Assembly: GCA_009885955.1 (NCBI GenBank)
Contig: VFJS01000003.1
Span: forward strand, 147,086-211,085
Source: Spirochaetia bacterium
GTDB lineage: Bacteria; Spirochaetota; UBA4802; UBA5550
Direction of reading: 5' to 3'
DNA: 64,000 nt
Shown: positions 6,844 to 56,315 of the stretch, piece after piece
How positions within the stretch are numbered: the stretch's first letter is position 1
Layout of the letters: each line of letters begins with the position of its first letter
Program-made: the position numbers and the translations under genes
The notes under the pieces: model-generated
The model's input: the letters and a program-made list of their open reading frames with translations, nothing else
What the model was told of the DNA's origin: nothing
The model's database searches: none

Positions 6844-6856
6844 GAAGGAATAATTT

Positions 6857-7590
6857 ATGAAAAGAATTAATATAATGATAATCTTCACGATAATGAATTT
6901 TATGGCATGCTATATGGTATATGATACACCCAGGGACAATAAAAATGATCCCGGGGGAGATAAATATGTTTTAAGTGAAAACCTCCCAACAGTGACAATA
7001 GCTGTTACCGTGAATGTTAACGTAATAACAGTTTTAAGCACTGTCAGTAAAGGTACAACTGCTGTTACAGCTCGCGGTATATGCTGGAGCACCAGTCCAA
7101 ATCCCATTATAAGTAATTCCCATACCACTAATGGTATAGGAACTGGCAGTTTCACCGTTATTATTACAGATCTTTTTACGAGTAGTGCTCTATACTTTAT
7201 TCGGGCTTATGCAACAAATAATGCAGGAACAGCTTATAGTGATCAAATTAGTAGTAATATCTTGGAGTAATGTTGCTGATTTTATAGGAACAGGGCAGGC
7301 GAATGCTGATTTGATTATTAGTCAAACATGTCATTTATACAGTGCTGCAAAACTGTGTGACAATTATACTGACGGCGCCTATATCGACTGGTTTTTGCCG
7401 TCAAAAGATGAACTCAGTTTAATATATGCAAATTTGTATTTAAGCGGTGTTGAAGGTTTCGCTGGTTGCGGCTATTGGAATTCGTGAGGGGACTGGTTAC
7501 CCCGTGTGTTACCAGAATTTCTACGATGGCTTCCAGGGTACCGTCACTAATGACGCCACTTTCTATTTGCATGCTGTCCGGGCTTTTTAA
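6857..7590 (+). pseudogene. Frameshifted lipoprotein gene (Fn3-like 'CWSTSPNP...YFIRAYATNNAGTAYS' domain + DUF1566/Lcl-like domain) split over three frames
   Basis: Frame 2 (6857-7270) carries the lipobox and a Bacteroidetes-type Fn3-like domain. Frame 0 (7185-7487) carries DUF1566 'DWFLPSKDELSLIYANL...GFAGCGYWNS'. Frame 1 (7489-7590) carries the DUF1566 end 'CYQNFYDG...LHAVRAF'. Two +1 shifts near 7262 and 7486. Confidence 0.45.
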
Positions 7591-7654
7591 CAATTTATCT
7601 ATTTAACTATTTACTTTCCCGTGGAGCACCATTGGAGTTGTCCGTTGTGTTTCC

Positions 7655-7736
7655 GGACCGTAGGTTATTTGGTTATTTGCTTATTATGCGGGCTCCGCCC
7701 GCAGGGGATTTTCAATGGATCCTGGATTTGCTTTTA
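7655..7736 (+). repeat. Direct repeat copy 1 (~75 bp, contains palindrome GCGGGCTCCGCCCGC) flanking a two-gene cassette
   Basis: GGACCGTAGGTTATTTG(GTTATTTG)CTTATTATGCGGGCTCCGCCCGCAGGGGAT...GATTTGCT is repeated at 8496-8568 in the same orientation. Confidence 0.8.
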
Positions 7737-7795
7737 ATTGGAGGCATCAATGAGGATCCCCCTCCGATCTGGAGAAGAGTCTGCCTCCTAATCAT

Positions 7796-8134
7796 TCAAA
7801 GTCTGTGATTCGGTATATAGTTCAAAATATCATCAATGGTAATGTCATAATTGGGCATAATTTTTTCACCTTCATGTTTATGATGCGGGAAGGTTATCAC
7901 CTCTTTATGATGCGGTGAATTATCCCATCTTATAATTAAATCACCGTTAACTTTTTGCCAATGATAGGAATATTTTCTATCGAATTCATCTGAAAATTCC
8001 TTGATGAATAATCGGGTATTATTTAATAATTCAGATTCGATTTTTATAAAAAATCCGGTTTTAAAAACCCGGAAGTCCTGAATTGTATATTTTTTAATGA
8101 TTACCGAGGCATTAAGAGATTTGATAATTTCCAT
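7796..8134 (-). CDS. DUF6516/TumE-like small protein (putative toxin of an addiction-type pair)
   Basis: 112 aa with the motif 'RWDNSPHHKEVITFPHHKH'. This resembles the conserved YDNAPHH...FPHHKH signature I recall for the TumE-like family. It overlaps the upstream small gene by 23 nt. Confidence 0.45.
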   Translation of the reverse strand: MEIIKSLNASVIIKKYTIQDFRVFKTGFFIKIESELLNNTRLFIKEFSDEFDRKYSYHWQKVNGDLIIRWDNSPHHKEVITFPHHKHEGEKIMPNYDITIDDILNYIPNHRL

Positions 8135-8378
8135 TGATTATATCTTCTTTTTCTGAAATCAATTCTCTATAACTTTTATCGTATGCTTTCCATTCCATGT
8201 AGTCATCCCATTCGGTATAATTTTCAGTTTTTTCGCTATTTATCAAATTTTCAAATTCTTCAAAAGACATTTTATATTTAGTCTTCATCAAAGCGATTCT
8301 ATCCTCCGCTTTATGCAATTCATACAGGAGATTCATATAAAACAAATCTTTAATGTTATCATTATGTATAATTACCAT
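8112..8378 (-). CDS. Small hypothetical protein, putative partner (antitoxin?) of the TumE-like gene
   Basis: 88-aa acidic protein, co-oriented and overlapping the downstream gene. No recognisable motif. Confidence 0.35.
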   Translation of the reverse strand: MVIIHNDNIKDLFYMNLLYELHKAEDRIALMKTKYKMSFEEFENLINSEKTENYTEWDDYMEWKAYDKSYRELISEKEDIINGNYQIS

Positions 8379-8495
8379 ATTAGAGACCTGCCCGGAATAT
8401 CATATTTTTATATGAAAAAAATTATTATCAATTAATTGTTCTGTCAAGTAAAATATGTTTTTTGGAATCATACCTACTATGACCGCTGCATTTAC

Positions 8496-8568
8496 GGACC
8501 CTTGGTTATTTGCTTATTATGCGGGCTCCGCCCGCAGGGGATGTCCAGGTGAACCTAGATTTGCTAAA
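8496..8568 (+). repeat. Direct repeat copy 2
   Basis: See 7655-7736. Copy 2 lacks the 8-bp internal tandem duplication. Confidence 0.8.
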
Positions 8569-8576
8569 TTAATATA

Positions 8577-8981
8577 TCATTCTATCTTATCAATTAATTT
8601 TTTGATATTTTCCATAAATTTCATTAAATCAGAATAAGACCTGGTTAATTCGCCCTTTGAAAAAACTACAAAATCATCATAATCGCTTTTTGTTCTCAAG
8701 TCATAGGAATTATAAACTATTTCACCAATTTCGTGCGGGACAATGCCGGCCTTTACGAATTCCCTGTTGAACCAGCCGATCAGTTGAAGGTGCTTGGAGG
8801 TTTGGTAATTCTTTTTTAACGCAAACGCCGATAGCAAGTAATAGATACAGTAATATATCCGGTTTGCGGCTGTTTCCAGATAGCCAGTTTTTATTAAGAC
8901 ATCAATTTCAGATATAAGCGCGTCAGCTCTTTTTATGCGATGGGCAATTAAAATACTTTTATCTTCATCACTTAATGTCAT
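8577..8981 (-). CDS. HEPN-domain protein (toxin-like partner of the upstream nucleotidyltransferase)
   Basis: 134-aa all-helical protein. 4-nt ATGA overlap with the MNT gene, the classic HEPN/MNT arrangement. No canonical Rx4-6H motif was seen, so toxicity is uncertain. Confidence 0.6.
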   Translation of the reverse strand: MTLSDEDKSILIAHRIKRADALISEIDVLIKTGYLETAANRIYYCIYYLLSAFALKKNYQTSKHLQLIGWFNREFVKAGIVPHEIGEIVYNSYDLRTKSDYDDFVVFSKGELTRSYSDLMKFMENIKKLIDKIE

Positions 8982-9331
8982 ACGGTAATGCCGCTTTCAA
9001 TGGCCTTTTGAATAAAGGGTTGTTTTCCGCGAATTGTATTAAGCTGGGGTTTCGATATAATTTTTGCGTCAATTATAATATCGTATTTCAAGCTGATATC
9101 ATAACAAATTTTTTTTATATTCGATTCAATAGAAGAGTTAAAGTCTGATAATAATATGATAAGAATATCATAATCTGAATATTCACGGGCAGTTCCGTCA
9201 ATCCTGGATCCGAATAATAAAATATTATCCAGAATGTTTCCAAATGCTTTTAGTAATTCGTTTTTCAGGTCTATTAATAAAATATTATTATCCAATTTTT
9301 TGTTATCCTCGATGATGAATTTCTCTTGCAA
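8978..9331 (-). CDS. Minimal nucleotidyltransferase (MNT/MntA-like antitoxin)
   Basis: 'LLFGSRIDGTAREYSDYDILII' is the GS-x9-DxD polymerase-beta-type NTase motif. Confidence 0.75.
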   Translation of the reverse strand: MQEKFIIEDNKKLDNNILLIDLKNELLKAFGNILDNILLFGSRIDGTAREYSDYDILIILLSDFNSSIESNIKKICYDISLKYDIIIDAKIISKPQLNTIRGKQPFIQKAIESGITV

Positions 9332-9515
9332 TTCCTGTTTTATGCGCTTTCAGCGCCTTTTCGGCGATACTATCAAAGCGATGCTCCTTAATATCTTTTT
9401 CAATCTGCTTGTCCCACTCATCTGAATCATATTTTCTAAACCATTCCCTGAGAGTAGAAAGATCTTTCCGATCAAGCTTTATGATCTCTTGCTCCAATTT
9501 TTGAACTTTTGTCAT
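9303..9515 (-). CDS. Small hypothetical protein (possible addiction-module component)
   Basis: 70-aa charged helical ORF overlapping the MNT start by 29 nt. No motif recognised. Confidence 0.3.
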   Translation of the reverse strand: MTKVQKLEQEIIKLDRKDLSTLREWFRKYDSDEWDKQIEKDIKEHRFDSIAEKALKAHKTGIAREIHHRG

Positions 9516-9804
9516 TATTTTATAGTCTTAAAATTGAATAAATAAATGCTAAATATTAAATAATTATAGTTCAATAATATAAAATTAAAAAAAATACGTC
9601 AATTATTTTAAATGGTGTAAATTGGCAAAGTTCTCTGTTAATATTTAATGATATACAGTAGTTTATGCAAAAGGGTCAAGATTAGCGTCTGATAGGGAAT
9701 GCCTTCTTCCAGCGCTAATTTCCCTAGAACAGCCTGATTCCTGTCTGTAATATTTCTTTTGCAAAGGGATTTTCCCGGTTAAAGTCTTCAGGTAAAAAAA
9801 GGAA

Positions 9805-10200
9805 TTACTTCAAGTTCACTGCCCACTTCCGGATAAATACCGTTATATCCGCCTTGCCAATATCCCCTTTCGTTACTGATAAAACCATTTTCACAAGTTT
9901 ATCCTGTAACACGGTCATATCATATCCATTTGAGATAAGAAATACAAGTGCAGAGGCAACGGCGGTCCGTTTGTTTCCATCGACAAAAGGATGATTTTTA
10001 ACAATATGAAAGAGATATGCCGCAGCAATTTCAAAGAGGTCAGTGTGAAGGAATTCGCCGCCATAGGTGGCAATTGGAATTCCCAGTGCCGATTTAAGCA
10101 ATTCTATATTCCGGATGCCGGGTGAACCTCCATAGCGGGTGACCTGATCTCTATGGATTTCGAGAACTTCAGAAAGACTCAGGAAAGATATCTCTTTCAT
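9805..10200 (-). CDS. doc: Doc/Fic-family toxin (death-on-curing)
   Basis: Fic motif 'HPFVDGNKRTA' (HPFx[DE]GNKR). Confidence 0.85.
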   Translation of the reverse strand: MKEISFLSLSEVLEIHRDQVTRYGGSPGIRNIELLKSALGIPIATYGGEFLHTDLFEIAAAYLFHIVKNHPFVDGNKRTAVASALVFLISNGYDMTVLQDKLVKMVLSVTKGDIGKADITVFIRKWAVNLK

Positions 10201-10202
10201 CC

Positions 10203-10430
10203 CTATTGGGCCAGTTTTTTAAGGGCTCTGGCATATTTATTGTTAACCTTATCCAGGGCTGTTTTGAATGTGGCCTGCCGGTTTACGTCCCTTATTGGTG
10301 TGAGCACCAATGCCTGCCCGTCTGTCGTGACGTCAAAGGGGGTGTCTGCCTCAACCCCGAGAAGATCGAGAATCGGTTTTTCGATAACCAGCGCAAGGCT
10401 GTTCCCATGTTTTGTGAGTGTTTTTATCAT
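10203..10430 (-). CDS. AbrB/MazE/SpoVT-type antitoxin (Phd-like partner of Doc)
   Basis: 75 aa. 'HGNSLALVIEKPILDLLGVEADTPFDV' is a looped-hinge-helix swapped-hairpin motif. Its stop is 2 nt upstream of the doc start. Confidence 0.7.
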   Translation of the reverse strand: MIKTLTKHGNSLALVIEKPILDLLGVEADTPFDVTTDGQALVLTPIRDVNRQATFKTALDKVNNKYARALKKLAQ

Positions 10431-10560
10431 AATGAACCTCGCGCAATGTTAATACTATGTAGTTACAATGTATTAACAAAATATTTTTCTGTCAATATTT
10501 TCATTATTTTTCCTTGAAAAAAGTATTGCAAATCCCGGAAAAGATTATTTTTCAGATAAT

Positions 10561-10602: not shown

Positions 10603-10628
10603 TTGTACATATAAGTTTTGTAATTGAA

Positions 10629-10733
10629 ACCCTCGCCCTACCGGGAGAGGCGACAGGCAGGAGGCCTTAGTGTCGAGCGCGGACAGGATGGCCGAAAAGC
10701 GCTCGACGAACGCGCGGAGCGCGGGTGAGGGCA
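10629..10733 (+). repeat. 105-bp structured GC-rich repeat, module B copy 2
   Basis: 1 mismatch relative to 2578-2682. It ends ~35 nt upstream of the SDR gene start. Confidence 0.85.
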
Positions 10734-15688: not shown

Positions 15689-15717
15689 TTGACATAATGG
15701 GAAACATTGGGTATATT
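15689..15717 (+). promoter_or_regulatory. Sigma70-type promoter of dnaK (TTGACA-17-TATATT)
   Basis: TTGACA at 15689-15694 and TATATT at 15712-15717, with exactly 17 bp spacing. Confidence 0.7.
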
Positions 15718-15718
15718 A

Positions 15719-15745
15719 TTAGCACTCATATGTAGTGAGTGCTAA
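15719..15745 (+). promoter_or_regulatory. CIRCE operator (HrcA binding site)
   Basis: TTAGCACTC-N9-GAGTGCTAA perfect inverted repeat, placed directly after the -10 and ~110 nt upstream of dnaK. Confidence 0.9.
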
Positions 15746-15855
15746 TAATATTGAAAATTGAATTATGGAAGCAATTTTCCATTAAAAGATATTACAGATG
15801 AACAATAATATCTGGTAAATTGCTGATAAACATTTTGAAAATAGAGGTGAATAAA

Positions 15856-17787
15856 ATGAGCAAAATAATAGGTATAGATCTGGGAACAACAAATTCCGTT
15901 GTGTCCATCATGGAAGGCGGAGATGCAAAGGTGATTCAGAACTCCGAGGGGCAGAGGACTACCCCATCAATAGTTGCCTTTACGAATAACGGCGAAAAAC
16001 TTGTGGGACAGGTGGCAAAAAATCAGACAATAACAAATCCTGAAAATACCATACGCTCCATTAAGAGGTTCATGGGGAGGAGGTTTGATGAAATCTCCAA
16101 TGAATCCAGGATGGTGCCGTATAAAATATCCGATGACGGAAAGGGCGGCATAAAGGTTGTCACGGCATCAGGAGATTTTACACCGCCGGAGATTTCGGCA
16201 AGGATCCTCCAGAAGATGAAGGAGACCGCCGAAGATTACCTGGGTGAACCGGTTAAAAAGGCGATCATAACAGTACCTGCATATTTTAATGACCAGCAGA
16301 GGCAGGCAACAAAGGACGCCGGAAGGATCGCCGGCCTTGAGGTTGAAAGGATTATTAATGAGCCCACTGCCGCAGCCCTTGCCTACGGGCTTGATAAAAA
16401 AATGGATAACTTTAAAGTGGCCATTTATGACCTGGGCGGCGGGACATTTGATGTATCGATCCTTGAGCTTGGAGGCGGGGTTTTCGAGGTAAAATCGACA
16501 AACGGCAATACCCATCTCGGCGGGGATGATTTTGACCAGAGGATTATAGAATACCTGGCAGCAGAGTTTAAGAAGCAGACCGGGATTGATGTGACCAGTG
16601 ACAAGATGGCCCTCCAGAGGCTGCAGGAGGCAGCGGAAAAGGCAAAGATTGAGCTCTCAAGCAAGATGCAGACCGATATAAATATCCCTTTCCTGACAGC
16701 AGACCAGGGCGGGCCCAAACATATGCTTCTTACCATGACAAGGTCTAAACTGGAGCAGCTCATCAGGGATCTTGTGGATTCAACCAGGGAGCAATGCCTG
16801 CACGCCCTTGAGGATGCGGGGCTCAACCCCGCCGAGATTGACGAGGTCATTCTTGTGGGCGGTTCAACAAGGATGCCGGCTGTCCAGGAGATTGTAAAAA
16901 GCATTTTTGGAAGGGAGCCGGGGAAAAACGTAAACCCTGATGAGGTTGTTGCGATTGGCGCGGCAATACAGGGTGGGGTACTTTCCGGAGATGTACATGA
17001 CGTGCTTCTCCTCGATGTAACCCCGCTGTCACTGGGGATAGAGACCATGGGCGGGGTAATGACAAAGCTCATAGACAGGAACACAACCATCCCTACAAGG
17101 AAGAGCCAGGTCTTCTCCACGGCAGAGGACAATCAGCCTGCTGTTTCCATACATGTGCTGCAGGGTGAAAGGGAGATGGCCCGGGACAACAGGACACTCG
17201 GGAGGTTCGAACTTGTTGGAATACCTCCGGCGCCCAGGGGCCTGCCGAAAATCGAGGTAACCTTTGACATTGATGCAAACGGCATAGTCCATGTATCGGC
17301 CAGGGACCAGGGTACAGGAATAGAACAAAAGATAAGAATAGAGTCCTCAAGCGGGCTGTCGGAAGATGAAATCAAGAGGATGGTCAGGGAGGCCGAGGCG
17401 AATGCAGGGGAAGACATAAAGGCCAGGGAGCTGGTGGAGGCCAGGAACGAAGGCGACAGCCTGGCATATGCCGGAGAAAAGATGCTGAAGGAAAATAACG
17501 GCGCAATAGGTCAGGCCGAGAGGCTCAGCATTGAAGAGAAAACGGGTAGGCTCAGAAGGGCCATGGAGGCAAACGATATAGATGCCATTCGGAGCGCTAA
17601 ATCAGAGCTTGAAAAGGTACTCCATGAATATGCCGGCAGGGCAGGCCATGCTTCACAGGCAGGAAACGGCCAGGAAGGGGCTGCGGGGAACGGCAGCTTT
17701 AGTGAAGGAGGAAAAAACCCGGGCGACGGAAAGGTCTATGATGCCGAGTATGAGGTGGTTGACGAGGATCAGAAAAAAGCCAGTTAA
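15856..17787 (+). CDS. dnaK: Molecular chaperone DnaK (Hsp70)
   Basis: '[11 protein letters not shown]', 'DLGGGTFD', '[11 protein letters not shown]'. Start chosen at ATG 15856, preceded by a GAGGTG RBS; the ORF track extends to 15820. Confidence 0.95.
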
Positions 17788-34125: not shown

Positions 34126-35454
34126 ATGAATATTTTTTTTCAACAGCTCAGAAAATTTTCCACGTTTATATATATCCTTATTGCCCTTTTCATCGGCGCA
34201 GTCATTTTTAATTTTAATTTCAGATGGGAGGGAGTATCAATAATCCTCAGGATTTATCTTTTCATTTTTGCTTTCTATATAATTTATACCTTTTCAATGA
34301 TGGACATTGACGGGCTTAAGGCAAAGTACCATGACATGTACGGCCGGAAGGGGATTTTTATACTGTTTTCCCAGGCCAGGGTCTTTCCGTTTCTTTTTAT
34401 TTATTTCACCATAATAATCCTTACATTTATCAATTATATCGGATCCCCTGACTGGCCTGCGGAGCCGATCTTAAATATTCTTAACGGGAGATATTCCAAT
34501 ACGCTTATCTATTCGCTGATCCTGCTTCTGATCCTCAATATGAAGAAGAGCCCCAGGGTAACGGTACCCATGTTTTTGATATTCGCTGTTTTATATTTCA
34601 TTCTTTATAAGGTGGTCTATTTCTATTCCCCGGCCGGAATTCTGACGACGTTGCTTAAAATTCTTAATTTCATCATAGTCATTTTTATTCTCCTGTTCGA
34701 ATTTTTTTATGACAGGAGCAATCTCCTGAAGATTTCAATTCATACGGTCAGTATTGCCCTGGCGCTGCATTTTATTGTCGTGGGCTGTTTATACTCCATA
34801 AACAGGTATTCTAAACCGGCTTCCTATGGAGAGGTCAGGTCCTCAACTTTTCTGCTGAAAATGGGCTTTTCCTTTCCACTGGTGAAGCTCAGGAATGCGA
34901 TTATCAAACATTCGAAATTCCAGCTGATACATCACCTCATATACTATTCCAGGAAATACAACAGAGAGATTGATTTCAGCATAGAGGAGTGGGAGGATCT
35001 TATGTTTTCCGGAACGGTTCAGAGGACAGACCTGATATCCATGTACCTCCTGGACAAGATAAAGAGCGTTTCATATAAAAGCCTCATTGCTTTCGCGGAG
35101 ATGAATTCCAGGACCTCTGGAGAGGAGCTCATAAACGCCGGGCGTTTCATCAAATATTCCTCGAAGTATTTTGAGGAATTCATGGATGATTTTTTTGCAA
35201 GGTATAAAAGGCATAATTTCCATTTCAAGATCTGGGTGCTCAAAGTAATTGGAGATGCCGAGGTGGTAAAGTCAATACCATTCCTCATTGACAAACTTAC
35301 CGATCTTAACCTGAGCATCTCAGAGGAGGCTTTCAGGTCCATTGCAAAGATTACAAAGATGGATGCTGCAAAGAAGTACGGCATTAAGATAAATTCTCCT
35401 GCAGTGGTCAGGGCATATAAGGAGTATTACCAAATGCTTCGCAAAGATGACTGA
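34126..35454 (+). CDS. Polytopic membrane protein with C-terminal HEAT-like repeat region
   Basis: At least 7 hydrophobic helices in the first 220 aa. The C-terminal soluble domain has HEAT/PBS-lyase-like repeats (VIGDAEVVKSIPFLIDKLTDLN...). Confidence 0.5.
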   Translation: MNIFFQQLRKFSTFIYILIALFIGAVIFNFNFRWEGVSIILRIYLFIFAFYIIYTFSMMDIDGLKAKYHDMYGRKGIFILFSQARVFPFLFIYFTIIILTFINYIGSPDWPAEPILNILNGRYSNTLIYSLILLLILNMKKSPRVTVPMFLIFAVLYFILYKVVYFYSPAGILTTLLKILNFIIVIFILLFEFFYDRSNLLKISIHTVSIALALHFIVVGCLYSINRYSKPASYGEVRSSTFLLKMGFSFPLVKLRNAIIKHSKFQLIHHLIYYSRKYNREIDFSIEEWEDLMFSGTVQRTDLISMYLLDKIKSVSYKSLIAFAEMNSRTSGEELINAGRFIKYSSKYFEEFMDDFFARYKRHNFHFKIWVLKVIGDAEVVKSIPFLIDKLTDLNLSISEEAFRSIAKITKMDAAKKYGIKINSPAVVRAYKEYYQMLRKDD

Positions 35455-36049: not shown

Positions 36050-36101
36050 AATACAATAAGAATATATTTCATTATAATTACAAGTTTTTTTGGTAACTAC
36101 T

Positions 36102-36297
36102 CAGCCAGAAAATAGGAAAAAAATTTTGCTCAGGTCTTAGCACGGATAAACACTGATAAAAATGAGATAATAATGAAAATGTATTATCTCATTAAAAAAA
36201 TAAACCTAAAATGAGAATAAGTTTCTAATAATGATATTAAAAAAATCCGTGAATATCCGCGTGAAGACCTGAGCTATTATTTATAGCTGAGTAGTAA
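36102..36297. repeat. Nested inverted-repeat element with AT-rich core (MITE-like or looped operator region)
   Basis: Outer arms GGTAACTACTCAGC / GCTGAGTAGTAAC (perfect). Middle arms GCTCAGGTCTT / AAGACCTGAGC. Inner CACGGAT / ATCCGTGA + ATCCGCGTGA. ~130 bp AT-rich centre. Lies in the nth / methyltransferase divergent intergenic region. Confidence 0.7.
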
Positions 36298-36428
36298 CTT
36301 TTTTTGTATGGCATTTCTTACTTTTTTCAATGGAAAAATTTTTTAAAATTTGACAGGATGCAGGGGATTATGGAATTACCTATAAGGTGAATAGAGGTAT
36401 CATGCGGTTGATGATAGGGAATTGATAT

Positions 36429-37295: not shown

Positions 37296-38165
37296 ATGAA
37301 AGTAACGGGCAGCATACAAGAGGCAAGGGAATGGATAGGCCTGGCCAGGAGGGAGAACAGGACCGTGGGTTTTGTCCCCACAATGGGGTACCTCCACAGG
37401 GGGCATATCAGCCTTGTAAAGGAGTCGGCACTGCATTCCGATTTCCAGGTAATGAGCATATTCGTCAACAGGAAACAGTTTAACAATATACATGATTTCG
37501 ACACATACCCGAAGGACACCTCAAGGGATCTTGAATTGGCAGAGGCGGGCGGGGTCGATATGGTCTATATGCCCGATGACAGGGAAATGTACCATGAAAG
37601 CCTGACATCAGTCCACCTCAATGTGATCACGGAACATCTCTGCGGCGCACACAGGCCCGGCCATTTCGACGGCGTATTCCTTGTCGTCAGCAAGCTTTTT
37701 AATATCATCCAGCCAGATATTGCAGTTTTCGGCCAGAAGGATATTCAGCAGGCCCTGGGAATAAAAAAAATGGTTCTGGATTTGAACTTCCCTGTTGAAA
37801 TAATAATTTCACCTATTGTGAGGGAAGAGGACGGGCTTGCCATGAGTTCCAGGAACAAGCACCTTGATGCCGGAAACAGGGCAGGAGCTGCACTGATCTG
37901 CAAGAGTCTGAAAAGGTGCGAAGAGCTTATCATGTCCGGGGAGAGGGGCCAGGGAATGATAACTTCAGAGGCCATGGAAATTTTAAGACAGGGATCCCCG
38001 GAAAAGATTGAATATTACACCATGGCCAGGTTCAGCGATCTCTCGCCTGTGGATACGCTCAGGGAAAAATCGGTCCTTGCAGTGGCTGCATATTTCGGGA
38101 CAACGCGGCTTATTGACAATATGATAATTGAGTACATGGACGGTAAGGTAAAATGCATATACTGA
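37296..38165 (+). CDS. panC: Pantoate--beta-alanine ligase
   Basis: 'GFVPTMGYLHRGHISL' (HIGH-like motif of PanC) and 'VFGQKDIQQ'. Confidence 0.9.
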   Translation: MKVTGSIQEAREWIGLARRENRTVGFVPTMGYLHRGHISLVKESALHSDFQVMSIFVNRKQFNNIHDFDTYPKDTSRDLELAEAGGVDMVYMPDDREMYHESLTSVHLNVITEHLCGAHRPGHFDGVFLVVSKLFNIIQPDIAVFGQKDIQQALGIKKMVLDLNFPVEIIISPIVREEDGLAMSSRNKHLDAGNRAGAALICKSLKRCEELIMSGERGQGMITSEAMEILRQGSPEKIEYYTMARFSDLSPVDTLREKSVLAVAAYFGTTRLIDNMIIEYMDGKVKCIY

Positions 38166-38617
38166 GACAATCCCGGTTTTTCTGCGCTGTTTTTGCGGTT
38201 TTTATTTCATGGTCATGCGCGCCAAGGGCTCCCCTTACCCCGGGCGATGCCTTTATGAAAATAAGGGCGGCTTTCGGTTCATCTGATTATGAGGCGGTTT
38301 ACGGTATCCTTTCTTCCGGGAGCAGGGAGAAACTGAAAAAGACTGCTGGTATGGTTTCCGGCATGAATGATGCCCAGCTTTCCTATTCCGCCGGGATTTA
38401 CGGCACAACGCCGGAGAGGTTCAAAAACATCAGCGGCAGGGACTTATTTTTATTATATGCCAGGTCTGATAGGAATGATGTGAGAGCTGCGGTGAAATAT
38501 AATATTTATTCAATTACCGTTTCGGGGAAATTTGCATCAATAGTATCGGAAAACGGTATGAAACTGCTTTTAGTCCAGGAAGGGCCCTACTGGAAACTCG
38601 ATATTTCTGATTTTTAG
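38153..38617 (+). CDS. Hypothetical secreted protein/lipoprotein
   Basis: Signal peptide 'FFCAVFAVFISWSCAP'. No domain recognised. Confidence 0.4.
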   Translation: MHILRQSRFFCAVFAVFISWSCAPRAPLTPGDAFMKIRAAFGSSDYEAVYGILSSGSREKLKKTAGMVSGMNDAQLSYSAGIYGTTPERFKNISGRDLFLLYARSDRNDVRAAVKYNIYSITVSGKFASIVSENGMKLLLVQEGPYWKLDISDF

Positions 38618-49059: not shown

Positions 49060-49228
49060 ATACTGCTCCAGAATTTTTATTATGTCTCACCTGCTGCAAT
49101 ACCCTTTTTATAGATGTTTCCATTTGTCAACAAATTTGTTTGAGGATGTTTTAAAAAATGACATACAGTTTTTTTAATTGACAAATGTTTTTTTGTGTAA
49201 ATGCTTAAATGGGAATAAAAAATTTCGC

Positions 49229-49410
49229 TCACGGATTTGCACGGATAAAAAGGGATAATATTGAATATAAAAGAATTTTTATTTTAATAGGAGAAATAAT
49301 AGGGATTAGTTCACGGTAAAATTTTGAAAATAATCCTTCAATTGATGGGAATATATTTGAGAGTAGCTTTAAGAAATAAATAATCCGTGACTATCCGTGA
49401 AAATCCGTGA
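49229..49410. promoter_or_regulatory. Inverted arrays of TCACGGAT / ATCCGTGA motifs flanking an AT-rich ~135 bp core
   Basis: Left: TCACGGATttgCACGGAT (49229-49246). Right: ATCCGTGActATCCGTGAaaATCCGTGA (49383-49410). Same motif and architecture as 36102-36297. Lies in a divergent intergenic region. Confidence 0.55.
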
Positions 49411-49504
49411 ACAAATATTTGTTTTTGAGCTGAAGCCTTTCAGCAAAATAAAATAATAATGTGAGACGATATGGTGAAGAAGAATATGAAACCGCTGTTT
49501 AAGA

Positions 49505-54022: not shown

Positions 54023-54365
54023 CGCCCGGCCCCTTCTCCCGGCAAGGCTGACTTCTACCCACATTTCTGTAAAAGAAGCACTTTAACCTAAGCCCCCGGC
54101 GGATAGAATCAATTCTTGATTATAACATACTGCCGCCACCCCCGGAGGGGGTTTATTACCATTTTTTTCATTCCAGAAAACGTTTTTCACAAACTATTTA
54201 TATAAAAATATCTGAATTAATGTATTTCACTGCATAAAAAATACTTTTTTTATTAACCCCCTCCGGGGGTGGCCGGAAAAGATTAACACATCATAAAAAT
54301 TCCCTCGGCCGGGGGCTGCTACATAAGATGTGGGTAGAAATCAGCCGGCAGGGAGAAGGGGTGTG
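54023..54365. repeat. ~345-bp composite palindrome with three nested GC-rich inverted-repeat pairs around an AT-rich core
   Basis: Pairs: CCCGGCCCCTTCTCCCGG..CTTCTACCCACAT / ATGTGGGTAGAA..CCGGCAGGGAGAAGGGG; GCCCCCGGC / GCCGGGGGC; GCCACCCCCGGAGGGGGTT / AACCCCCTCCGGGGGTGGC. The outer arms share the CCCCTCTCCCGG-type motif of repeat module A. Confidence 0.8.
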
Positions 54366-56213: not shown

Positions 56214-56315
56214 AGATAGGGAGATGTGGGGATAAGAAAATGTGATAGGGGGATGAGATAATAATTTAAATTTTTTTATTATCCCCATAATCTCTCTTTC
56301 TTCTCCCCCTATCTC
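56214..56315. promoter_or_regulatory. Inverted repeat with C/G tracts upstream of the csoR-family gene promoter (candidate operator)
   Basis: GAGATAGGGAGATGTGGGGATAA...GATAGGGGGAT...TTATCCCCATAATCTCTC..CTCCCCCTATCTC. Followed by TTGACA (56327-56332) -17- TATGAT (56350-56355) and a leader of under 20 nt. Confidence 0.5.

Follow-up and report, generated by a model that had tools for sequence, protein, structure and literature searches.

Two intergenic loci in the genome of a Spirochaetia bacterium belong to a family of short inverted repeats that spans more than ten bacterial phyla as well as phage contigs. The loci lie in a stretch of 64,000 nucleotides (GenBank contig VFJS01000003.1, positions 147,086 to 211,085; this whole stretch is called the window here), with locus 1 at 36093-36298 and locus 2 around 49227-49412. 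Each of their arms consists of three 10-bp units arrayed in tandem, and in other genomes arrays of this architecture are reciprocally linked to genes for a small protein of the PD-(D/E)XK nuclease fold, GxxExxY. The boundaries of locus 1, moreover, are those of a repeated element. We consider it probable, with a confidence of about 0.6, that each locus is a gene-less, non-autonomous copy from a dispersed family of inverted repeats, similar in kind to doublets of repetitive extragenic palindromes (REPINs) or to miniature inverted-repeat transposable elements (MITEs), with array ends that are bound by a protein.

Read directly in the sequence, the four motif clusters of the two loci each resolve into three 10-bp units in exact register, built on the core ATCCGTG. 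At both loci a CACGGAT-type arm is followed by an AT-rich centre and an ATCCGTG-type arm, the arms being inverted with their arrays facing outward. The left array of locus 1 (36128-36157, minus strand) is composed of the units ATCAGTGTTT, ATCCGTGCTA and AGACCTGAGC, and the right array (36245-36274, plus strand) of ATCCGTGAAT, ATCCGCGTGA and AGACCTGAGC. The corresponding arrays of locus 2 read ATCCCTTTTT, ATCCGTGCAA and ATCCGTGAGC on the left (49227-49256, minus strand) and ATCCGTGACT, ATCCGTGAAA and ATCCGTGAAC on the right (49383-49412, plus strand). The last of these has three perfect cores, and the cores of the other arms carry 0-3 mismatches each to ATCCGTG. The centre measures 87 bp with 85% A+T at locus 1 (36158-36244), where it holds a perfect 12-bp hairpin (36161-36172 / 36182-36193), and 126 bp with 79% A+T at locus 2 (49257-49382). 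An AT-rich hairpin elsewhere in the window, at 56246-56289, has the 13-mer ATGAGATAATAAT in common with the centre hairpin of locus 1 (36161-36193).

These arms stand out from the remainder of the window. A profile hidden Markov model (HMM) trained on 189 arms from other genomes matches only the four window arms in 64 kb, all in the correct orientation and with E values from 1e-7 to 4e-3, and the next best match has E > 1. The individual matches are at 36137-36159 (E = 3.6e-3) and 36244-36264 (E = 1.6e-3) for locus 1, and at 49230-49248 (E = 3e-4) and in the right array (E = 1.3e-7) for locus 2. By itself the octamer TCACGGAT is mildly enriched in the window, with six occurrences observed against 2.0 expected, a number that is reached in one of 100 shuffles.

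The likeness of the two loci extends beyond the arrays into the linkers outside the left arms. The linker of locus 1, AAATAGGAAAAAAATTTTGC (36106-36127, plus strand), is homologous to positions 49207-49228 of locus 2, where the linker reads AAATGGGAATAAAAAATTTC (49207-49226, plus strand); over ~20 nt, 18 of 20 bases are identical in local alignment, with the common pattern AAATRGGA..AAAAAATTTYGC. Past the linkers, the left flank of locus 2 is the top non-self match in the window, at about 4.5 standard deviations over AT-rich controls, a likeness that is suggestive, with the next best control scoring nearly as high. Comparison of the two right flanks against AT-rich controls gave no similarity signal.

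A preliminary description of this DNA had reported motif clusters at both loci, and they are indeed present at those places, although the exact three-unit, 10-bp array that underlies every arm was absent from it. The motifs were described as one to three copies of CACGGAT on one side, whereas locus 1 has one exact CACGGAT on each side, and the separation of ~130-135 bp given for both comes near the centre of locus 2 (126-136 bp) but not that of locus 1 (87 bp). Two additional perfect inverted repeats had been noted at locus 1. One of these, GCTCAGGTCTT, is perfect over 11 bp and coincides with the outermost array unit, but the other, GTAACTACTCAGC, matches at 12 of 13 positions only. The flanking genes are as described: nth (HhH-GPD/EndIII) faces a methyltransferase gene followed by that for pantoate ligase (panC) across locus 1, and an SH3_3 lipoprotein gene faces a NUDIX/Lactamase_B (NUDIX-MBL) gene across locus 2, both copies being placed in divergent 5′ regions. 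The nearest named homologues of the NUDIX-MBL protein come from proteobacterial MAGs and are at most 44% identical to it. It was also correct that the AT-rich centres are unrelated, since 22% of AT-rich control windows score as well as or better than their match. The conclusion drawn from this, that unrelated centres argue against copies of a single mobile element, nevertheless does not hold here, because variable centres typify the whole family.

The extent of this family was gauged with a degenerate pattern designed to match the four window arms, which was scanned over one genome per GTDB species. Among the matches listed, at least 119 genome stretches carry the pattern, where ~35 would be expected by chance on our estimate. 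They come from Acidobacteriota, Verrucomicrobiota, Planctomycetota, Nitrospirota, Beta-, Gamma-, Delta- and Alphaproteobacteria, Chloroflexota, Bacteroidota, Gemmatimonadota, Omnitrophota and others. A perfect triple array is likewise present in 67 stretches of viral contigs, with fewer than one expected by chance from a rough estimate of the size of the collection. Overall, phyla of soil and freshwater commonly carry the repeats, as do contigs of Mu-like phages. Genomes that bear arrays have extra strict elements at a density of about one per 61 kb, to which the two in the 64-kb window are comparable.

The canonical arm reads (A/G)(A/C)CCACGGATGRACACGGATGRACACGGAT, in which the ATCCGTG core is nearly invariant and three spacer positions vary. 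It is not palindromic but strings together three, rarely four or five, 10-bp units in tandem. An inverted partner lies within 250 bp on the inner side for 92 of 175 arrays and on the outer side for four, and the two window loci share the outward polarity of 92 of the 96 partnered arrays of other genomes. Centres range from 15 to 140 bp and are mutually unrelated. The window loci have the same architecture, with at least three units at an exact 10-bp period, outward inverted arms and a variable centre. No target-site duplication was found at 50 canonical pairs. A separate family of arrays with CTCTGTG or CTCTGCG units often adjoins ATCCGTG arrays (L032, L131 and L144).

Array doublets can persist at orthologous sites with exchange of their centres. 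At the murG-murC site of three Acidobacteria (L024, L025 and L079) the arms are kept and the centres are wholly different, and at the pyrH-frr site of two Acidobacteria (L040 and L061) the arms are again kept and the centres differ; the centre lengths at such orthologous intra-operon sites are ~20, 33 and 140 nt. A related situation is seen in two viral contigs whose flanks are ~81-85% identical, where one copy of a ~200-bp element in one contig stands against two tandem copies in the other (L130:3900-4560 versus L176:6650-7190) and the array elements have unrelated centres. Two further contigs from IMG/VR, L131 (1-9585) and L181 (1-11438), carry nine and seven arrays, respectively, which within each contig are all on one strand and mostly lie directly 5′ of gene starts. 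The first encodes Mu-type transposase domains and the second an AAA_22 ATPase domain (Mu-type transposition proteins). In L131 the strand of the arrays is unchanged where gene direction switches.

All-against-all clustering of the open reading frames (ORFs) in the 119 loci revealed one recurrent linked gene, which encodes GxxExxY (~125 amino acids, TIGR04256 / PF13366 PDDEXK_3). No recurrent transposase, recombinase or regulator emerged from these ORFs, and other cargo between arms (L013, L029, L086 and others) included no second recurrent family. At four genome loci (L009, L037, L051 and L076) the GxxExxY gene is located exactly between two arms. The linkage also holds in the reverse direction. 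Eighty metagenomic loci were picked by the GxxExxY protein alone, and 73 of these have both flanks available. With an array defined as at least three units at a 10-bp period, upstream within 160 nt, arrays are present upstream of 45 of the 73 genes, downstream of 41 and on both sides of 34, compared to 5 of 344 control windows (1.5%).

Approximately one-third of the arrays flanking GxxExxY genes have the ACGGAT core, and the rest display ACGAAT, ACAGAT, GCAGAT, GCGAAT and other cores in the same architecture. Upstream and downstream core types agree around a given gene. Furthermore, protein identity is 0.513 within a heptamer type versus 0.470 between types, a difference that none of 2000 permutations reaches. 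A few versions with a 9-bp period occur among these flanks (L229 and L232 in the flank set L193-L272).

Traces of the arrays are also found in protein databases. Of the 120 GxxExxY proteins that rank best in the database (P0121-P0240), 86 end in IRxNPCxSV, a translated ATCCGTG array (ATC CGT Gxx AAT CCG TGx xxT CCG TG), and 30 of the same 120 proteins begin with a sequence of the M(N/D)(T/A)D(E/Q)HG type. Judging from these sequences, gene callers probably extend ORFs into the arrays and thereby give the proteins spurious termini (MNTDEHG... and ...IRENPCKSV). The family is very large, as all 8000 of 8000 scored candidates have E ≤ 1e-10. The AlphaFold model of GxxExxY (predicted local distance difference test score of 95.6) corresponds to a minimal PD-(D/E)XK core, for which a fold search returned Cas4 SSO0001, lambda exonuclease and the AddAB nuclease domain as the closest structures, and the D...E-x-K residues are conserved. 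A sequence search of the PDB gave no match, leaving the fold search alone as informative.

Locus 1 has a second set of ends outside its arrays. The outer terminal inverted repeat, with GTAACTACTCAGC on the left (36093-36105, plus strand) and GCTGAGTAGTAAC on the right (36286-36298, minus strand), forms the left and right boundaries of the unit. It is abutted on either side by the identical octamer TTTTTTTG (36085-36092 and 36299-36306), a putative target-site duplication from which the empty-site junction is predicted to read …ACAAGTTTTTTTG/TATGGC…. None of the short-read contigs of the same strain, which were found via the flanking proteins, crosses this element. Among Logan contigs from runs SRR9952633 and SRR8670876-8, those on the nth side (L001 and L002) stop 29 and 30 nt inside 36093, and those on the methyltransferase side (L273-L276, from four sequencing runs) all begin exactly 30 nt inside 36298.

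Logan assemblies are built at k = 31, and in a de Bruijn graph at this k a repeat reveals itself by contigs that run k-1 nt past the end of each unique flank. Because contigs break k-1 nt inside both ends, the repeat boundaries fall exactly at 36093 and 36298; presence/absence or inversion polymorphism would break contigs elsewhere. By its sequence and its assembly, locus 1 behaves as a 206-bp MITE (36093-36298) that appears to have at least one further copy with identical ends. Terminal inverted repeats together with a target duplication are found at locus 1 only, and the existence of several copies with the same ends is indicated for it indirectly, by the assembly breakpoints. Locus 2 assembles cleanly, in one orientation and with 100% identity in three independent short-read assemblies, and has a degenerate outer inverted repeat only, with no target duplication. 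We read locus 2 as an older, decayed relative and locus 1 as a young copy.

The variable spacers, the lack of compensation between core deviations and the 10-bp phasing together suggest that the arms are most likely multimeric protein-binding sites on DNA rather than mainly a base-paired RNA stem. Spacing by a helical turn would align the conserved heptamers along the same side of the DNA, and this phasing, the constancy of the heptamer across phyla and the absence of compensation favour recognition of each unit by a protein. Binding of the arms by a protein is our inference, as are the ideas that this protein may be GxxExxY and that it may mobilise the elements. Since the arms tightly bracket the GxxExxY gene in other genomes, the gene-carrying copies would represent the autonomous or ‘master’ form that encodes the nuclease, and the more numerous gene-less doublets may be kept or spread in trans, as REPINs are by REP-associated tyrosine transposases (RAYTs) and MITEs are by insertion sequences (ISs). 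A master in the source genome would be a GxxExxY gene with ATCCGTGA-type arrays on both sides. At locus 1, a doublet may have been packaged in, or may have acquired, DDE-type MITE ends, and any effects on the nth, methyltransferase-panC, SH3 lipoprotein or NUDIX-MBL genes would be a by-product of insertion.

Several observations weigh against this interpretation. An HMM search of six-frame ORFs found no GxxExxY gene in the window, and no transposase is present among the annotated window ORFs. Two copies are directly visible, and the evidence for more copies of locus 1 comes from assembly breakpoints. The window arms are without the canonical terminus ...ATCCGTGG(T/C) and end instead in ATCCGTGAAC, ATCCGTGAGC or AGACCTGAGC. 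Moreover, locus 1 has a target-site duplication whereas canonical family members do not, and it may be a composite, formed either when a DDE-type MITE took up an array doublet or when a doublet inserted into a MITE. Retention at orthologous sites across species suits a host function as well as mobility, and the link between heptamer type and protein similarity could merely reflect shared host phylogeny. Finally, we know of no precedent for a ~125-residue nuclease that serves as the sole mobilising enzyme.

In a first alternative, the arrays would be operators or sites for a nucleoid protein, at which a conserved DNA-binding protein that reads the 10-bp phase (a ring-forming or tandem-binding regulator, for instance) regulates or insulates adjacent genes, and the two window loci would be genuine control regions of their divergent gene pairs. 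The exact phasing, the kept core with varying spacers and uncompensated arm deviations, the divergent 5′ location of both window copies, the retention of elements at orthologous sites and the seven to nine co-oriented arrays that two Mu-like phage contigs carry shortly before gene starts are all consistent with this possibility, which we nonetheless regard as unlikely. The family occupies all intergenic contexts, with 20 tandem, five convergent and four divergent placements of inverted pairs by crude gene calls, and solo genomic arrays exhibit no sense-strand bias (14 versus 16). No regulator is linked to the 119 loci, where the sole linked gene encodes a nuclease and lies between arms. The closest relative, at 61% protein identity (L125), carries no element upstream of its NUDIX-MBL gene, although its differing synteny makes this locus uninformative on the empty site, and locus 1 has the boundaries and target duplication of a repeat element. 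The preliminary description had proposed either a looping operator at the divergent promoters or related terminal inverted repeats. The second proposal is supported by the spread of such arms across phyla, with equal outward polarity and variable centres, and by the repeat boundaries of locus 1. An operator tied to divergent promoters is not supported, given the tandem, convergent and intra-operon placements, the lack of a linked regulator and the scans for sigma-70 promoters and terminators, which gave matches at shuffle level in both regions.

The arms could alternatively pair in transcripts, forming a REP-like RNA hairpin whose stem stabilises or terminates the RNA or serves as a cleavage site, for instance of RNase III. 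REP/BIME elements, Correia elements and the intervening sequences of 23S rRNA are known examples. Locus 1 can form a three-tier fold of -65 kcal/mol (z = -9.0) and locus 2 folds with z = -3.6, canonical pairs make stems of ~28 bp, many of which reside inside operons, and the spacers of the two arms agree more often than at random (3.68 versus 2.84 of six positions). However, pairing that is under selection should compensate between arms, and core deviations are shared by both arms in just 3 of 56 cases, which argues that an RNA stem is not the main constraint. Solo arrays are frequent, with ~40% of genomic and ~70% of viral arrays having no partner within 250 bp, and conservation of one heptamer across phyla is unnecessary for pairing alone. 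Rfam searches of the window and 18 canonical loci at gathering score returned tRNAs only, and the window elements reside upstream of divergent genes, where transcription through them is unexpected. We judge a principal role in RNA to be improbable. Still less credible is an inverton, in which inversion of the AT-rich centre by a site-specific recombinase would switch the divergent genes. Such a system is called to mind by the position of both loci between divergent genes, where inverted repeats enclose 87-126 bp of AT-rich DNA, and by weak promoter-like hexamers in the centres, but these hexamers occur at shuffle level and centres in the family can be as short as 15 bp. Locus 2 exists in a single orientation in its three assemblies, and contigs at locus 1 break at the outer ends rather than at the inner arm edges. 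Likewise, there is no recombinase among the Pfam-matched genes at ~29.8-40.2 kb and 43.0-54.0 kb, where two called genes (34126-35454 and 38153-38617) have no Pfam match. A chance likeness of two loci in AT-rich intergenic DNA, finally, accords with the mild enrichment of bare 7- and 8-mers in the window, but we consider it refuted by the three-unit phasing and correct polarity of all four arms, by a profile that matches nowhere else in the window, by the homologous linkers and by the recurrence of the identical architecture hundreds of times elsewhere.

Some more specific candidates were also discarded. RNA sites of the CsrA/RsmE type have the consensus ANGGA, which the canonical unit ACACGGAUGA resembles, and were dropped because solo arrays in genomes show no sense-strand bias and because the GGA would be buried once the arms pair. 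Likeness to the MraZ and DnaA boxes was set aside because the sequences seem to match too poorly.

The closest working likeness for a dispersed family with a linked nuclease is the REPIN-RAYT system, in which REP doublets are associated with RAYT proteins (PMC3116915, PMC3337134). Both systems comprise short extragenic repeats that are mostly inverted doublets with a variable spacer (PMC3116915, PMC3337134). In both, many copies lack a gene and a few flank a small gene for a nuclease or transposase-like protein, copies persist for long periods at orthologous sites, and there is no target duplication (here, in canonical members). Two defining features of REPIN-RAYT, the palindromic REP and the Y1 transposase, are nevertheless missing. 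Where a REP is a small imperfect palindrome, an arm of the present family has three 10-bp units in direct tandem, and the bracketed gene encodes a PD-(D/E)XK protein similar to Cas4 and RecB in place of an HUH Y1 transposase. Moreover, the core heptamer is common to many phyla, whereas REP sequences are lineage-specific. The ORFs of the 119 loci include no recurrent transposase-like family that could represent a RAYT-type gene, a result obtained with no RAYT-specific HMM run.

MITEs such as the Correia elements of Neisseria and the ERIC/IRU elements of enterobacteria are comparable to locus 1, which is AT-rich, non-coding and ~200 bp long, has terminal inverted repeats, a target duplication and evidence for multiple copies, and is located near promoters. 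The array doublet of locus 1 is internal to the 13-bp terminal repeats, however, and centres differ between copies. Locus 2 and the canonical members are without a target duplication, and no transposase of a parent IS is found among the window ORFs examined.

Directly repeated protein-binding sites with helical-turn spacing, inverted at the two ends or placed around AT-rich DNA, are also characteristic of multi-site transposon ends, iterons and centromeres, including those of Mu, Tn7 and ParR/parC. The units described here are shorter, with a 7-bp core, their copy number per genome is high, and no DDE transposase, Rep or Par protein is linked to them. The intervening sequences (IVSs) of 23S rRNA that bear ORFs resemble the gene-carrying elements in that a small ORF, of which many paralogous copies exist, lies between inverted repeats able to form a long stem. 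In contrast, the elements of this family are found outside rRNA and have arms made of 10-bp arrays, and GxxExxY is not the four-helix-bundle IVS protein.

Dispersed palindromic and MITE-like repeats are already known as a kind, but we found no published name for the family that joins arrays and GxxExxY. In the searchable full-text literature on the repeat sequences, GxxExxY, PF13366 and TIGR04256 (a scope outside of which subscription literature and database comment fields lie), the element and its association are undescribed. A more ambitious proposal, which we advance tentatively as possible rather than probable, is that ATCCGTG arrays and those with ACGAAT, ACAGAT, GCAGAT and GCGAAT cores are the ends of undescribed selfish or domesticated elements shared across phyla, with GxxExxY as their enzyme, gene-bearing copies as masters and thousands of gene-less doublets, the two window loci included, spread or maintained in trans. 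GxxExxY/PDDEXK_3 is a very large family without known function, for which linkage to the arrays yields a testable hypothesis of a nuclease acting with array ends. If true, this would provide a function for a huge family of ‘hypothetical’ proteins and an analogue of REPIN-RAYT based on a different nuclease fold. The array repeats leak into protein annotation and break short-read assemblies, and the window motif should not be taken as the operator of a regulon or as a private operator of the neighbouring genes.

A second nested inverted-repeat element of ~320 bp is located at 54030-54360, between two minus-strand genes. Its tiers are formed by 54046-54064/54328-54346, 54091-54109/54299-54317 and 54135-54156/54252-54273 (GCCACCCCCGGAGGGGGTTTAT) around a 95-nt AT-rich centre. 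Neither CACGGAT units nor an Rfam match are found in it. Just upstream of a 655-aa ORF (15820-17787) is a perfect 16-bp inverted repeat (15713-15751) that contains TTAGCACTC-N9-GAGTGCTAA and which we take to be a CIRCE-like operator for HrcA. The window also contains a low-GC island (6850-10520) with genes of the toxin-antitoxin type, including those for a TumE toxin, a HEPN and nucleotidyltransferase pair and a Fic/Doc protein. A direct repeat of 107 nt, 99% identical between its copies, is found ~4 kb upstream of this island (2576-2682) and just downstream of it (10627-10733), and a 64-nt repeat is present within the island at 7669-7732 and 8502-8565.

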